A stretch of 64,000 nucleotides of DNA, from NCBI GenBank assembly GCA_000165345.1, contig CM000434.1, positions 480,001-544,000 of the forward strand. The letters run 5' to 3'. The position numbers were made by a program, and so were the translations under genes. The notes under the pieces were generated by a model. That model was not told where the DNA came from and searched no databases. It saw only the letters and a program-made list of their open reading frames with translations. Below, in pieces: positions 28,354 through 35,412 of the stretch. How positions within the stretch are numbered: position 1 is the stretch's first letter; each line of letters starts with the position of its first letter.

Positions 28354-29429
28354 TTAATTTCTCTGAGTCCTTCCAAAACTTACCTTTGAATATAGGGATA
28401 TTAGTGCTGTTTCTACTTTAAGAATTCTATCTCCCATATTCACGACTTTGAATCCCATTGTAATTAAGTCTGTCAATTCTTCTTTTGTCCAACCTCCTTC
28501 AGGTCCAATAGCAAGGATAATTGGTCCAGTGTGGCTTTGTAATCCTATTTCAGTAATCTTGCTGTTGCCTAAGACATCAGCAACAATTCCAATCATGCTT
28601 TCTTTGCAAAAAAAATAATTCCTAATATTGTTAATGTTTAACAAAAAGGAAGTAAAGTTTCTTACCTTAAATGCTGTAGAAAAAATGTCCAAGAAGCATA
28701 AACATAAACATCTGGGCACAATGTTTTTGATGCCTGTTCAAGCCCAAGCTGTACAATTTCATCAATAGACTCTTTTTTTAACTTGGATGAATTTAAATAC
28801 GACTTTTCGGATTTATCAGTACAAACAAAAATTATTCTTCCAACTCCAATTGTAACCGCATTTTGAAGTACTTTCTCAAACACTTTTGGTCTAGGAAGTG
28901 CAATTAATAAGTCGATTAAGGGGTAATCATGTTTATATTCCTCTTTATGAATTTCTGTATCTAACTTAATTGTAACTGCATATTGAAAATTATTTAAATT
29001 ATTGATTTCCGAAATAGATCTTCTGGATCTATTATTTACTTTATTACCTATTTCTTCAATGCTAGATAAGTTAATTATTGATTCTGATTTGGTTATTCCA
29101 TCTTTATTAGTTTCTTTTCTCATTATTTTGGTTACTGTTGCAGTTCCTTTTCCAGAGTTTTTAACTCCAACATTAACTTTTGAGCCAATATTAATTTCCA
29201 GAACTGAGATACAATGATTGGACTGTCTGGAGGATAGCTCAACAGTTAGGTCTTCATTAATATCCTTTTTATCAATAATGATTAAGTTCATTAGAATTGA
29301 TGGAAAAATGACCATTATGGCGGTATGATCTGCATTAAGACTGGATCTTCTCGCATGGTGCATAAGAAAGATACGATCACATAATAAAACTAAGCTAACA
29401 AAAGATTGGGTTTCGTATTGAAAGATCAT
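28354..29429 (-). CDS. RsmE-family RNA methyltransferase (bacterial 16S rRNA m3U1498 methyltransferase-like), 2 exons: 29429..28666 and 28621..28354, 44-nt intron
   Basis: C-terminal motif LAIGPEGGWTKEELTDLITMGFKVVNMGDRILKVETA matches the RsmE signature (E. coli-like ..IGPEGG.S..E......F..V.LG.R.LRTETA). Middle region ALPRPKVFEKVLQNAVTIGVGRIIF and EQASKTLCPDV match RsmE blocks. The two ORF-track fragments (28662-29429 and 28354-28719) are joined by a GTAAG...TATTAG intron with phase preserved (..HL-R-NYFFCKESMIG..). Confidence 0.75.
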
Positions 29430-29874
29430 TTATTTTTTATTTGAAAATGCCTTTATATTTTCAAGATGACTTATTCTCAATAACGAAAGATCAAAAAAAA
29501 TATATTAACATCAAAAGGTATACTTTAAAATCAATCATTTTTTTTTAAATAACTTTTTTAGTCTGATAAGAACAACCTTTACTTTTGTTTACAGTATTTT
29601 TATTTTTACTACTGCAGTTTTAGTCTTAAATAAATATTATTCATTTCCTGGAATTGTTGCAATTGGTAAGTTAATAATAATATATTAAGCAATTTCAACT
29701 TCGTATCCTAAGTATTTAACAGTGGAATTTTTTTTTTCTTATATATAATTATTGAGTGGTTTAATCTTCCAAAATTTTTAAATTGGAATATTTCATATTT
29801 TTTGATTAAAAGAAAACTCTATAAATCATCTACAAGAATTTTTCAAAAAAAAGTCAGCAGACCGTAAGTTTATA

Positions 29875-32800
29875 ATGTTTTTTAGAAAATTATTAATGGT
29901 TTTTAGGTATTTGAAAAACTCGAACCTTAAAAAAAATAAAAATGAACTAGAAGAGTGTATTGAGATTGATTGTAAAAGTGGAAGTTCAGAATCGTTTAAT
30001 GAAACTGGATTATATGACTATGCATTTGATCATTCAATAATTTCTAAAGCTGCTTCAGATGATTGGGTAGCTGCAATACCTCGAATACATAAACAAGTGG
30101 GTTTAAATTTTTCAATTTTAGATTTATCATTTTTAGGTTATGAGCAATGAATTTTATTCAAACAAATTATTTACATTAAAAGGAGTTGAATTGATTCATT
30201 GGGGAATTCATACAGGTTACCCAAGTTTTTCCCAATTATTAAAAAATACATCAGAAATACTTAGTTCATTTATTGAAATGTGTTTTAGGCAAACACAAAC
30301 GCCTGCATATCAAACAGGTAAGGTTTTATTAACTTATTTTGTTAAAATAATATTTTTAGGCCACATTGTAAAATCAATGTTGTGGTCCGGGGTGTATATT
30401 TGGGCAACAACAAAGATGTATCGTAAAAATAATAATGACCCATGGAATTTTAAACGTATTCCGGAGATTTACTATTTTTTTGAATCAACATTTTTGTGGA
30501 TGCTTTCCTATGATTATGTAATTGGTACGCACTAAAATAATTTATATGAAAAGTTGATTTTTGTTTCAGGTTTAATAGCAATATGGTATAGAAAAGAGAG
30601 TACAATACGTTATATTTTCAATTTTTATCAAATTATTGACTTTTTGTCGCTTCCTCCGTTCTTATTGTTTATAATTACAATAAGCCCACAATACGAATCA
30701 AGCCAAAGTTGGTTATTAATGTAAGTTTAGCAATATTTTTTTCAAACTTCAAATATTTGATTAGATTCGGGTGGTTAAGATTTTTAAGACTATTTCGAAC
30801 AGAAAAAGTGTTGGATATGTTATTTCCACATGTTTCTGCAATAAAAAGAAGAGTTATCGGTAAGACATTCTTTCTTTAATGATATTTTTTACTAAAATAA
30901 TTAGGAATTTTTGCTGGTGCGATAACCATCATTTTAACTCATGCTGGTGCAATATTTACGATAGAGTCACCATCGGAAAAAGAATATAATAGTTTGTTTG
31001 ATTATTTGTATTATTCAGTTGTAACAATTGGTACTGTAGGTTATGGCGACTTTTCACCTCGAAAAAGAGAAGGAAGACTAGCTACAATCATTTTGATCAC
31101 CCTGACCTTAGTTTTACTTCCTCATGAATTTCAAAGACTAAAAGAAGCATTAAATACACCACCAGATTCAATTGGATCATTTATTAGGAAAAATGATACA
31201 TATTTGTGTATTATTGGACCAATTCCACCAAAGGTAAGTTAATTATGCTCTTTGCAATATTTTAACACTTTCTTAAAGCAGTTGTTATTTATTACAAAAA
31301 GTCTTTCTCTGCAAAAACAAAGAAGATTCAAATCTATAGTACTTGTGACACCAATACAAATTTTAGAATATCAAAACATAGTTAAAATATCACAACAAAG
31401 AGGTTATATTCGATTAAGTATAAAGCAGGGTTTTTTAGGATCTGCAATCAATAACCTGGTCCAATATAGCTCTATTGTTTTAATTTATGGATCAGAGAAG
31501 CCAATATTACATGATGTTATTTGTAATGAAGGAACGCAAAAAAGTGACTTTGATGCACTGATTACTGTAATGTGTAAGCGATAAAATGAATAATTATGAT
31601 TAATAATATGAATTTTAGGTCTGACTAATTTATTGGGGCTAAAAGATAAATTTTTTCTTATTTTTTATTCATCGCAAGTTGCAAGTTTATCAAAGATAAC
31701 TGGAGTATTAGGGAGCCTATCTTTAGAGAATTTAAGAATTAAATTATTAAGCAAATGTATAAGTAATTGTCCAGGGTTTCTACCAATTATGCTACATCTT
31801 ATTATACCAAAGAATGAAAACATGCTTAAAAAGCTCCAGGAACCACCAAAAAATACATTTTTTACTAGTAATATCGATAGATCAAAAATTACCCCATATG
31901 AATGGAAATGTAGATGGAGGGGACTGCATTTTAAGGTTTATACATTAAGATTTCCAAACTCATTTTTTGGATATCCAATACAAATTTTTACGAAGTATAT
32001 TTATAAACATCTAGGAATATTTTTAATTGGAGTTTATTGCCCTGATACGAATAGAACTTATTTAAACCCTCATCAATATATAATTGGAGATAATTCAAAT
32101 ATTTATTATGAGGGGTCAAATTACCTTGGAATTGTGTTATCTTCCAGTATTTCCCTTGTAAAGAAAGCAGAGTTATTGGAATCACCAAAAAATTACACAG
32201 AAGAATTTATTAAAAAAGTGGGGAGGAGGAGCTGTTCTCCATCTAACGTATTTCTTAATAGAAGTAAAAAATTCAAGTCAAAAGAGTATATTGAAAACAA
32301 AGATCAATTAAATATTTATGATTGTACAATCATATCTGAAATTCATAAGCATTGTGATTCGAATGATACCGATAAAAATATCATAAAAAATTTGATAAAT
32401 ATTAATGAAACTGGGAAAAATATACAAATTACTCAGCATAATCGTGAATTTACAAATTTAATCAATTATTCAAGTTCTTACGATGATCAATGTTTATTTG
32501 ACCAGGTAAAAAATATGGTTCTCCCCAATCACTTTGAAGAAACTGCATCTAATATGACGAATATAAATAGTAAATTTGATATCTGCAAAATCAATTCTAA
32601 TACAGTTAGTTTTTCTCAATCAAATTTAAATTTTCTACCTGAAACAAATACCGGTATTCCAGTAGTTTCAAATTATTTAGAAGCAATTTCAAAAGTTTTT
32701 ACAAATAGAGAATACCCAATTGTGCTGATTATCGGATGGTGCGAACAGATTGATATGCTGGTAAAATTAACCTTTTCACTTAAACCTTCAAATTTTATTG

Positions 32801-33757
32801 TTTTATGTGAAAAAATTATAGATTCCAGTTTTATAAATGAAGAGTTTTTTGGAAGAATTGCCCAAATATCTGGTGTTGGGACATCAGAACATGATTTAAA
32901 ACAAGCCGGAGTATTGGTTGCATCAAGAATAATTATTTTTGATTCAACAGGGAATCCTTCAAATATATATAAAGAAGAACTAATTAACGTTAGATATGGA
33001 AAACATGCCATTGGCACTTGGATAGTAGTATGTTATTTATTCTCCAAATACAAAAAAAAAGATAATTGTTTAGTAGGATCCCAAAAAATGCCACCATTAA
33101 TAATAGATATTAAAGAGACAGACATTGGGTTATTATTATTTCAGTACTCGGATGATTGGCCAACCAGGATCGATGGATCAACTTACTCTATTCCATATAA
33201 GAACGAACTAGATTTTTTTTATTCAAGACAATTTCTTAGTGGACAGTTTTTTGTGGATAATATTATTGACTCATTGATTCCTTTTTTAGTTCCAATATTA
33301 GATAACAATCCTATAAATAAATCATTTATTAATCAAATAATTTATGGAAATCCAACTAGTAAACCATTCGGAAATGTTAGGTATTATAACGAAAAGAACT
33401 GTAGTTTGCAAATGGAAGAGATTCCATTTGTATTTGTGAATTCTACATTTTATAACTTATTTTCAGTAAGTTCGTTTTCGTTTTATAATTATAAATTTAT
33501 TCTTGATTTAACAGCAACTTCTTAAACATGGCAGGCTAGCCATTGGAATTTATAGACCAATTAGAGTGGACGATCATCAATTTAATAAAAAACAAGATAT
33601 AAAAACTCAAAAATTTTCTCCAAGTTTAGGAGATTTAGAGTCAGTTATTAACGAGAATTCGGTAAAAGAATGCTTTAATTGCGAAACTCATTTAATAATA
33701 TCATGCCCACCACCAAAATTCAAAATAAATTTAGGAGATTGTGTTTATTTCTTATAG
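29875..33757 (+). CDS. Slo/BK-type K+ channel (voltage-sensor S4, TVGYGD pore, RCK domains, Slo C-terminal tail); at least 9 exons
   Basis: Exons deduced by eye from GTAAG(T/A/G) donors and T-rich...AG acceptors with phase continuity. Firm exons: 30183..30317, 30360..30524, 30570..30720, 30765..30859, 30905..31233, 31279..31573, 31619..33465, 33515..33757 (introns 42-49 nt). The 5' end (29875..30136?) is uncertain. Motifs: S3/S4 IIDFLSLPPFLLFIIT and WLRFLRLFRTEKVLDML (compare BK VVDFFTVPPVFVSVYL / LRFLRALRLIQFSEILQFL). Pore YSVVTIGTVGYGDFSP. RCK-like YLCIIGPIPPK.. Tail ..RLAIGIYRPIRVDD...CFNCETHLIISCPPPKFKINLGDCVYFL (compare BK LCFGIYRLRD...[21 protein letters not shown]). No poly-Asp calcium bowl seen. 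Confidence 0.8.
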
Positions 33758-33891
33758 AGTATATATCTTAAATATATTTATTAAAATAATGACTTTTATT
33801 TGATTGATTTTTTTTTTTGGTAGATATTTCACCATTATTTGATTGGTGTGTGCACACCAAAGTTAAACTATTTGAAAATAAACAAATCATT

Positions 33892-35412
33892 ATGTGGGGA
33901 TTTATAGAACAATTAAGAACAAAAGCAGGAGGATTTATTGACTTATCCAGTGGAATTATTTGTTGTGCAGCATTTGGAAGTTTATTACTGATATTTCGTA
34001 AGTACATTCCGCATCCATCTGAATTCTTTCCATTTGGTTGGTTTTTTTTAAAATTTGGTATTCATAAGCATGACAATTTTAATTTATTATTGGATATTCT
34101 CGAGGGAGTTGATATTCCTGAAACAGGAAAGTATTCAATAAGAATTAAATGCGGTAGAGAAACTGACGAATCATCTACAACTATTTGCTTGGAAGATGTA
34201 AACAAGTTTACTAATAACCTTACGAAATCATTTAAATGTTGTTGGAAAGAAAAGCGTATTATTCTTGTAAGACAAAGGGAGAACTATTTATTTATTGAAT
34301 TAATCAGTCATGGCACTTTTACCAGTTCTGTAATTGGAGAATGTAGAATTAGCATTATGGATATAATTGATGCAAAGTTTCCAAAAAAAGTAACTTATAA
34401 CATCCAAAAAGACAGGAAGGTTGTTGCGAAACTACTGTTATCTTTTTATAGAATTTCTGCAAACATAATAGTTGAGGATACAAATCCAGTATTATTTCAA
34501 GCAATGATTAATTTACAAACTGATGCAGATATTTCAGGCAATAAATCAATTTATGCAGATTTTGACAAAATGTCGGAAAAAGAACAATTAATATTCTTTT
34601 CTAAAGCATTACAAGGAAATCTATATTACTTAGAAAATGGTGACAAAGGTAAGTTATCACAATTCTTTTTAAACCTTTAACTTTTTTTTTTTAAGATAAA
34701 CTGAGAATGTTTTATTTCAGAGCAGTGGAAGTTACAATTAATAGGTAAGTTAATAAAAAAAATATAAAGCAATTATTAATATTAAACAGGTGGGAGTGGT
34801 GCTATTGGGCAACCGAAGGCGATTATTTAAAAGGAAGTAGTAAATTAGGAGGATATCCATTTCTTGCTATGAGTGTGGTCATTCCAGATAAAACGGATAG
34901 AGATCAAATATACATCAAATATCATGATTTATACGGGATTCATGACCTTTTCTTTAAAGCGATAGAAATTGATAGAGATGTCTGGTCAGAAGCAATATAT
35001 GAATTTATCGAGAGAGTAAGTTAAATTCAGTACTACAAAGACGATTAATAAATATTCTTAGTTAAGATCATATCTGGATCATATAAAGGATGGCGTTATA
35101 AACACCGAACAATTAAACATTCACTTGGAGAACGCTAATTTTTCAAATTCACCCTCGGAACAGCCATTCATTATAAACTTAAACTCAAGAGACGAAAGCC
35201 TAACAAATAATACTCACCACGAAATAACAAGCGAAAAGAAGGACAAACAAGTGACGATGATTGAGTCCAAAGTAAAGAACTCAAGAACAGTAAAAATACA
35301 CACAAACGGGGGTTCAGAAAAGCATTCCAAGAACATCAACTCACCAAATTCTATAAAGAGAATGAAGATGGAAGTAAATCCATCAAGATATGAAAACGAG
35401 CCATTAATATAA
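33892..35412 (+). CDS. Hypothetical protein of about 460-485 aa encoded by 4 exons
   Basis: Exons 33817(TTG)/33892(first ATG)..34648, 34696..34744, 34790..35015, 35062..35412, joined through GTAAGT donors at 34649, 34745, 35016 and AG acceptors with correct phase. This links ORF-track fragments 33817-34680 and 35125-35412. The T9-GGTAG at 33811-33823 could instead be an acceptor for an undiscovered upstream exon. No domain recognised. Confidence 0.45.

Follow-up and report, generated by a model that had tools for sequence, protein, structure and literature searches.

Corrected gene model of a putative Slo-architecture K+ channel subunit in Cryptosporidium

The described channels closest to the Cryptosporidium K+ channel gene reported here, which lies in a window of 64,000 nucleotides (nt; the whole stretch of DNA that was analysed: GenBank assembly GCA_000165345.1, contig CM000434.1, positions 480,001 to 544,000 of the forward strand), are Slo1/BK (KCNMA1, KCa1.1), Slo2.2/Slack (KCNT1, KCa4.1), Slo-like proteins of oomycetes (Aphanomyces) and the apicomplexan channels of the PfK1/PbKch1 type. 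In BK a voltage sensor with an S4 of the form LRFLR.LR is followed by the pore and by a tandem ring of RCK domains, and a single extra helix, S0, gives an extracellular N-terminus. Evenly spaced arginines in S4 have been described for PfK1 and not for PfK2 (Waller et al., PMC2263067). For C. parvum, the protein XP_001388321 was catalogued as a KCa homologue with human KCa4 as its nearest human protein, six predicted transmembrane segments and no detected RCK domain; no Kv-type homologue was found in C. parvum or C. hominis, and one was found in C. muris (Prole & Marrion 2012, PMC3283738).

The locus at 29447-33757 (+; positions are those of the window) is very probably a single Cryptosporidium gene of 12 exons and 11 introns encoding a Slo-architecture K+ channel subunit of 1273 amino acids (aa). 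From its N-terminus, the protein would comprise two extra membrane helices, an S1-S4 voltage sensor, S5, a pore with the TVGYGD motif, S6, a tandem RCK1-RCK2 ring and a Slo-type tail. The gene and its family are already known; the addition made here is a corrected model, which restores the voltage sensor and the N-terminus.

Gene structure of the channel locus

The window is AT-rich (about 25-40% G+C) and is occupied mainly by long uninterrupted open reading frames (ORFs); the region 29400-33800 contains instead many short ORFs on the + strand. An earlier note on this DNA had joined these fragments into one spliced gene for a Slo/BK-like K+ channel, with at least 9 exons and a left boundary at the ATG at 29875. 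The single gene was borne out: the spliced coding sequence is 3822 nt long, remains in frame, encodes 1273 aa and ends at the TAG stop codon 33755-33757, and the two Pfam profiles that had been suggested as a check, Ion_trans_2 and BK_channel_a, both matched above their cut-offs. The seven junctions proposed in the note (30317/30360, 30524/30570, 30720/30765, 30859/30905, 31233/31279, 31573/31619 and 33465/33515, + strand) all flank GT..AG introns; these measure 42-49 nt and contain 14-24% G+C, and the joined sequence forms one open frame. For the gene as a whole, the 11 introns are all GT..AG, 40-49 nt long and 14-24% G+C. The multi-exon structure was thus right, but the count of about 9 had to be raised to the 12 exons modelled here, and the left boundary was misplaced: the ATG at 29875 lies inside a 43-nt intron (GTAAGT...TAG, 29864-29906), and three more exons are located upstream.

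The channel gene was compared with its orthologous loci in C. serpentis, C. felis and C. ubiquitum. In all three it is flanked as in the window, by a gene for an RNA methyltransferase on the minus strand upstream and by a PH_CERLI1 gene downstream. C. felis and C. ubiquitum have all 12 exons, with GT and AG at the matching splice sites; exons 1-11 were confirmed likewise in C. serpentis, and exon 12 is covered by the deposited model of that species.

The start codon, 29447-29449, was found by tblastn of orthologue models. The N-terminal extension present in the C. serpentis (1317 aa) and chipmunk genotype I models maps upstream of the ATG at 29875. Exon 1 (29447..29517; MPLYFQDDLFSITKDQKKYINIK) and its donor are kept in all three orthologous loci. 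Exon 2 (29562..29665) shows 68-85% protein identity to these loci and a hydropathy peak, which corresponds to the first extra N-terminal hydrophobic helix (about aa 25-46); the second (about aa 54-75) is encoded by exon 3 (29713..29863), supported by tblastn, the orthologous loci and hydropathy. Exon 4 (29907..30096), which ends in ...AASDDWVAAIPRIHKQ, encodes a putatively cytosolic N-terminal region, and its donor after KQ is kept in 3 of 3 orthologous loci. The following junction, 30096/30137 (KQ/VMSNEF), was absent from the earlier note and was judged by its conservation in the three loci, which also support exon 5 (30137..30317; VMSNEFYSNK...TQTPAYQT). An alternative intron between exons 4 and 5, 30137-30182, was rejected: the peptide VMSNEFYSNKLFTLKG and the donor directly after KQ are both kept in the orthologous loci.

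The 42 nt of intron 5 (30318-30359) keep the reading frame and contain no stop codon. In two deposits, C. tyzzeri TRY51112 and C. parvum KAL5368086, they are translated as 14 added residues (KVLLTYFVKIIFLG). The orthologous introns measure about 43, 46 and 56 nt, and neither C. felis nor C. serpentis has the insert in its protein.

A tandem NAGNAG acceptor, aaAGcAG, is found at 31277-31281, before exon 10. The deposited C. parvum models take the downstream AG and lose one Gln; we favoured the upstream AG because the dipeptide QL is invariant in a nine-sequence apicomplexan alignment. C. felis apparently has Leu at this position.

The introns of the gene are biased towards its 5' end: 10 of the 11 lie within the first 2.2 kb, and exon 11 extends over 1847 nt without an intron. 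S3 and S4 are each encoded by an exon of their own, and S5, the pore and S6 together by a single one. In the C. parvum genome about 90% of the genes are reported to be intronless, with 688 introns in total, a mean intron length of 99 nt and a maximum of 10 exons per gene (Isaza et al. 2015, PMC4637869). With 12 exons, and with introns of 40-49 nt against the reported mean of about 99 nt, the channel gene stands at the extreme of this otherwise intron-poor genome.

A pseudogene was rejected as an explanation, since the frame is intact in four species and under purifying selection (see below). The exact spliced sequence of 1273 aa was not found in a collection of 15 billion proteins.

Exons 7 and 8 and the deposited models

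The channel gene had already been deposited, under the name 'putative ion transporter'. Over the shared parts its product is 100% identical to a protein of Cryptosporidium sp. 43IA8, whose 90% cluster contains C. parvum Iowa II XP_001388321, C. parvum CAD98503 and proteins of C. hominis and C. tyzzeri; the C. hominis protein differs from that of the window at several residues, so that the window can be assigned to the C. parvum type. The warning that the annotated gene model would be wrong or missing therefore proved correct in its first part, the deposits skipping the S3-S4 exons, and incorrect in its second, as XP_001388321 exists and is in the literature as KCa4-like.

The deposited models (1016, 1017, 1074, 1075, 1089 and 1171 aa) are mutually inconsistent. 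Exons 7 and 8 are missing in all 12 retrieved models, which come from C. parvum, C. hominis, C. tyzzeri, C. meleagridis, C. ubiquitum and chipmunk genotype I, and most of these models also lack the true N-terminus. Exon 6 is joined directly to exon 9 (...SYDYVIG/IFAGAITI...), which removes 151 + 95 = 246 nt and keeps the frame, so that gene predictors accept the skip.

The skipped sequence encodes half of the putative voltage sensor. Exon 7 (30570..30720) carries S3 (IIDFLSLPP, 30632-30658), and exon 8 (30765..30859) carries S4 (WLRFLRLFRTEK, 30772-30807), with a basic residue at every third position in a motif kept across the apicomplexan family. Exon 7 has 86-96% and exon 8 has 77-97% protein identity to the orthologues, which places both among the best-conserved parts of the gene. 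Third codon positions account for most of the nucleotide differences, and the neighbouring exons 6 and 9 show the same pattern. Synonymous and nonsynonymous differences from the window numbered 25:7 for exon 7 and 13:7 for exon 8 in C. serpentis, 27:4 and 14:1 in C. felis, and 14:2 and 8:2 in C. ubiquitum. The matched coding parts of the two exons are of equal length in all four species, and the introns around them vary from 42 to 67 nt between species, in steps that are not multiples of three. By these substitution patterns, exons 7 and 8 are under purifying selection in the three other species.

It is very improbable that the deposited models are right, or that they describe one real isoform in which exons 7-8 are skipped to give a subunit without S3-S4, perhaps a regulated isoform without a voltage sensor. 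Although the skip preserves the frame and is shared by every one of the twelve models, which represent six species or genotypes of the intestinal clade, the intron that it implies would be 380 nt long, against 40-49 nt for all 11 introns of the gene, and the sequence that it discards keeps 77-97% protein identity across four species with a strong synonymous excess. Each skipped exon has its own conserved GT and AG sites; both exons are present in the C. serpentis deposit, and S3 is present in that of C. felis. Some recent annotations claim introns supported by RNA-seq (PMC8744675), with no reference there to the channel gene. The deposited models of the gene conflict with one another at four other points, which suggests prediction error, and a sensor reduced to two of its four helices would have no known function. 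Unless transcript data show otherwise, the models that omit exons 7 and 8 are, on this comparison of loci, annotation errors.

Predicted architecture of the protein

The motifs on which the earlier note had relied, WLRFLRLFR (30772-30798), TVGYGD (31033-31050) and a BK-like C-terminal tail with GIYRP (33545-33559), are all present in the spliced product. Exon 6 (30360..30524) was assigned S1 and S2 (HIVKSMLWSGVYIW..., YYFFESTFLWMLSYDYVIG) from the family alignment and shows 79-93% identity to the orthologues; S2 contains conserved acidic residues. In S3, the sequence IIDFLSLPP contains the motif IIDxxxxxP, with an acidic residue and a proline. S4 reads R-F-L-R-L-F-R-T-E-K, its four basic residues being spaced R-x-x-R-x-x-R-x-x-K. 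This S4 spacing and the acidic residue and proline of S3 are features of channels that bear a voltage sensor. The predicted sensor is of the Kv/Slo1/Slo3 kind and not of the Slo2 kind, because S4 carries regularly spaced basic residues that are missing in the aligned S4 stretch of Slo2.2.

Exon 9 (30905..31233) encodes S5, the pore helix, the TVGYGD selectivity filter (aa 413-418), S6 and the start of RCK1. Pfam Ion_trans_2 was matched with 49 bits (cut-off 22.5; E 5e-13). The best PDB sequence match over S5-pore-S6 was Slo2.2 (E 4e-8 to 1e-10), followed by other K+ channels, and together these matches agree with a six-transmembrane core of the Slo type. By hydropathy, the two hydrophobic helices predicted for exons 2 and 3 would stand in place of the single S0 of BK, and an even number of extra helices would keep the N-terminus cytosolic.

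RCK1 follows directly after S6. Its N-terminal part is encoded by exon 10 (31279..31573), as indicated by hhalign against BK RCK1 and by the invariant QL of the family alignment. Exon 11 (31619..33465), assigned by Pfam, hhalign and an AlphaFold model, encodes the remainder of RCK1, a linker and most of RCK2. Pfam BK_channel_a was matched at 31720-32034 with 27.8-28.2 bits (cut-off 26.8) and with 33.8 bits in the C. serpentis orthologue. Exon 12 (33515..33757) encodes the tail (GIYRP, SCPPPKF at 33701-33721, and the stop codon), with the pattern GIYR...PPP...D.VY. Two further Pfam profiles, Slo-like_RCK (16 bits, cut-off 24) and Slowpoke_C (cut-off 24.2), remained below threshold for the channel protein.

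The linker between RCK1 and RCK2 (about 160 aa, ~32182-32661) is of low complexity, with many N, S, I and K residues. Its sequence is poorly kept within the genus; it is longer in C. serpentis and has a predicted local distance difference test (pLDDT) score of around 30 in the AlphaFold model.

A profile built from the Cryptosporidium sequences alone gave significant PDB matches over the membrane part only and none to BK RCK2, and a wider family profile was needed. The RCK profile was built from apicomplexan and chromerid sequences only, and the BK sequence was taken from the PDB 6nd0 alignment. With hhalign, the S6-RCK1 profile matched BK with 98.4% probability (E 9e-15, 273 columns). The profile from the transmembrane part to RCK1 matched KCNT1 (99.4%, E 2e-21, 418 columns) and the oomycete Slo-like protein (99.7%, E 3e-25, 472 columns). 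The C-terminal profile matched KCNT1 RCK2 (94.5%, E 8e-8, 181 columns), the oomycete protein (96.8%, E 3e-10, 239 columns) and the C-terminal tail of BK (83%, E 9e-6, 54 columns). RCK2 and the Slo C-terminal tail would complete a tandem gating ring.

The AlphaFold model was calculated for the deposited protein of 1075 aa, which lacks S3-S4, from an alignment to which apicomplexan orthologues had been added. It reached a predicted template modelling score (pTM) of 0.62, and many 10-residue blocks of the RCK regions had pLDDT values of 80-93. When the model was compared with the PDB by Foldseek, the top 50 matches were all Slo1 or Slo2.2 chains or BK gating rings (E 1e-26 to 1e-18), with alignments of about 860-1170 columns and TM-scores of up to 0.67 on target length. 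Full-length Slo1 and Slo2.2 were matched, as was the isolated BK gating ring (TM 0.65-0.67 on target length).

Taken together, profiles and model indicate that the predicted channel protein has Slo architecture, with a pore and a tandem RCK gating ring. By homology with Slo channels, the subunit is inferred to form tetramers, to be selective for K+, to depend on voltage and to be coupled through S6.

Relatives, ligand sites and gating

An exhaustive HMMER search of 1.84 billion cluster representatives returned 24 proteins below 1e-30. The named relatives (1e-84 to 1e-30) come from Besnoitia, Eimeria, the gregarines Lankesteria, Gregarina and Selenidium, Plasmodium fragile, Theileria equi, Vitrella and Chromera. 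These proteins are similar to one another and have in common a conserved S4, RCK regions and the tail; the S4 motif G[WYFPS]LRFLRL.[RK] is kept in most of them, including the Plasmodium member. Judged by these similarities, the channel protein belongs to an apicomplexan and chromerid family. Two Besnoitia proteins matched the channel with very different scores, 2e-72 and 2e-22; the family therefore comprises at least two paralogues, and the channel gene pairs with the first.

As the S4 motif of the family fits the evenly spaced arginines of PfK1, we infer that the gene codes for the K1-type channel of Cryptosporidium. It shares with the PfK1/PbKch1 type the TVGYGD pore, the RCK1- and RCK2-like regions, a tail of the form IGIYR...SCP...D.VY and the spacing of the S4 arginines (GPLRFLRLVRAES in the P. 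fragile relative, GWLRFLRLFRTEK in the channel gene). It is the best-scoring Cryptosporidium counterpart, with orthology taken from score ranking and motifs. The predicted protein is shorter than its relatives: 1273 aa, against 1860 in P. fragile and 2959 in Besnoitia. Outside Alveolata, the nearest matches were the oomycete Slo-like proteins (Aphanomyces; E 2e-9 in a word-indexed search), which are colinear from S1 to the C-terminus; the oomycete proteins score 137 bits against Pfam Slo-like_RCK, for which the Cryptosporidium protein stays below threshold.

With BK, the protein has in common the order of voltage sensor, pore and tandem RCK ring, the LRFLR.LR form of S4, the BK_channel_a match, the C-terminal tail motif and the top Foldseek matches, at about 14% identity in the structural alignment. 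It differs from BK in the two predicted extra helices, in the long RCK1-RCK2 linker and in the ligand sites. The absence of a calcium bowl, asserted in the earlier note, was upheld, and it extends to the other divalent-cation sites of BK. In a scan of the whole protein, runs of D/E never reached three residues, and every stretch of 12 residues contained at most five acidic ones. By hhalign and the family alignment, the position equivalent to the calcium bowl, QFLDQDDDDDPD in BK, is occupied in C. parvum by FQYSDDWPT (33142-33165), that is, QYSDDWPT against DQDDDDDPD. In place of the two Asp, C. felis and C. ubiquitum have D-Y and C. serpentis has N-P, so that the site varies even between congeners; the wider family has L-E-Y-x-D at this position, with no acidic run after it.

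For the other sites we use what we take to be the human BK numbering and residue roles. Most of the family retains the Asp of L-E-Y-x-D, which is aligned to BK D892. In RCK1, mapped by hhalign against the sequence of PDB 6nd0, D362 of the Ca2+ site region is replaced by S, the proton sensor H365 by L, both Ca2+ ligands, D367 and E535, by K, and both Mg2+ ligands, E374 and E399, by S. The calcium bowl, the RCK1 Ca2+ site and the Mg2+ site that are specific to BK were thus all lacking. Since the residues aligned to those ligands are substituted, an action of Ca2+ or Mg2+ through the sites of BK is unlikely. With Slo2.2, the protein shares the profile matches to RCK1 and RCK2 and the missing calcium bowl. 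Unlike the S4 of Slo2.2, that of the channel is charged, and the Na+-site residues are not evidently kept: E and S are found at the positions aligned to D818/H823 of rat Slack, presumably its Na+ motif.

Several modes of gating may be considered for a channel of this kind. Voltage would move S4, and the gating ring would couple to S6 as in Slo channels. We consider it unlikely that the channel is nevertheless activated by Ca2+, as a functional KCa channel, through sites other than those of BK or through an associated protein. The protein has been catalogued among the KCa homologues, and RCK domains bind varied ions at variable sites, with an ion specificity that is not predictable from sequence (PMC3283738); the conserved Asp of L-E-Y-x-D would also fit, but the residues aligned to the Ca2+ and Mg2+ ligands are all non-acidic, two of them being Lys, no acidic cluster occurs in the whole protein, and the position of the calcium bowl varies within the genus. 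Gating like that of Slo2 (Na+ or Cl-) or Slo3 (pH), which the earlier note had proposed, is likewise doubtful. The four regularly spaced basic residues of S4 (R-R-R-K) have no equivalent in the aligned Slo2.2, and the residues opposite the Slack motif differ, which speaks against Slo2 in particular, even though the Slo2.2 pore gave the best sequence matches in the PDB, KCa4 (Slo2) is the closest human protein according to Prole & Marrion (PMC3283738), and the calcium bowl is missing in Slo2 and Slo3 as well. That proposal remains a guess.

The apicomplexan K1-type channels may, although this is less likely than not, form a distinct branch of the Slo family, with a charged sensor of the Kv/BK type, two extra helices and a ring without the divalent-cation sites of BK, gated by voltage together with a ligand new to Slo channels, or by voltage alone with a structural ring.

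Several observations weigh against the proposed gene model and the reading of its product. The evidence for each junction consists of sequence signals and conservation between species. The similarity of RCK2 to BK itself is weak (31% probability, E 5e-4, 145 columns). Against Pfam Ion_trans the C. parvum sequence scores close to the cut-off of 25 (24.5-25.8 bits; 30.6 bits in C. serpentis), and the voltage-sensor region alone gave only an insignificant match in the PDB (Kv3.1, E 0.8, with S3 and S4 in register). The modelled sequence lacked S3-S4, the Slo2.2 and oomycete Slo-like sequences in its alignment may bias the model towards a Slo fold, and a quarter to a third of the model is of low confidence. 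The identification of the Plasmodium relative as PfK1 and not PfK2 is based on the S4 motif and on best-hit scores, and the loss of the BK ligand residues is compatible with Ca2+ sensing at other sites.

Neighbouring genes and the published record

The gene upstream (28354-29429, -) has the appearance of an RsmE-type RNA methyltransferase, with a GPEGGWT motif, and Pfam Methyltrans_RNA is matched by its syntenic copies in three other species. The gene falls into two ORFs and so probably contains an intron too. Its longest ORF begins 17 nt from the ATG of the channel gene, which would make a very tight divergent pair. Downstream (33817-35412, +) lies a multi-ORF gene whose orthologues carry Pfam PH_CERLI1. 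A C. meleagridis deposit of 1569 aa fuses this gene to the channel gene, another annotation error.

The truncation of the deposited model would explain why the C. parvum protein was recorded as having six transmembrane segments and no RCK domain, and why no Kv-type channel was recorded for this species or C. hominis (PMC3283738). If the K1-type channels do form a distinct Slo branch, the published lack of a K+ channel with a voltage sensor in C. parvum and C. hominis would be an artefact of the skipped S4 exon. Cloning, expression, modelling or drug screening that starts from those deposits would be carried out on a protein without its voltage sensor.

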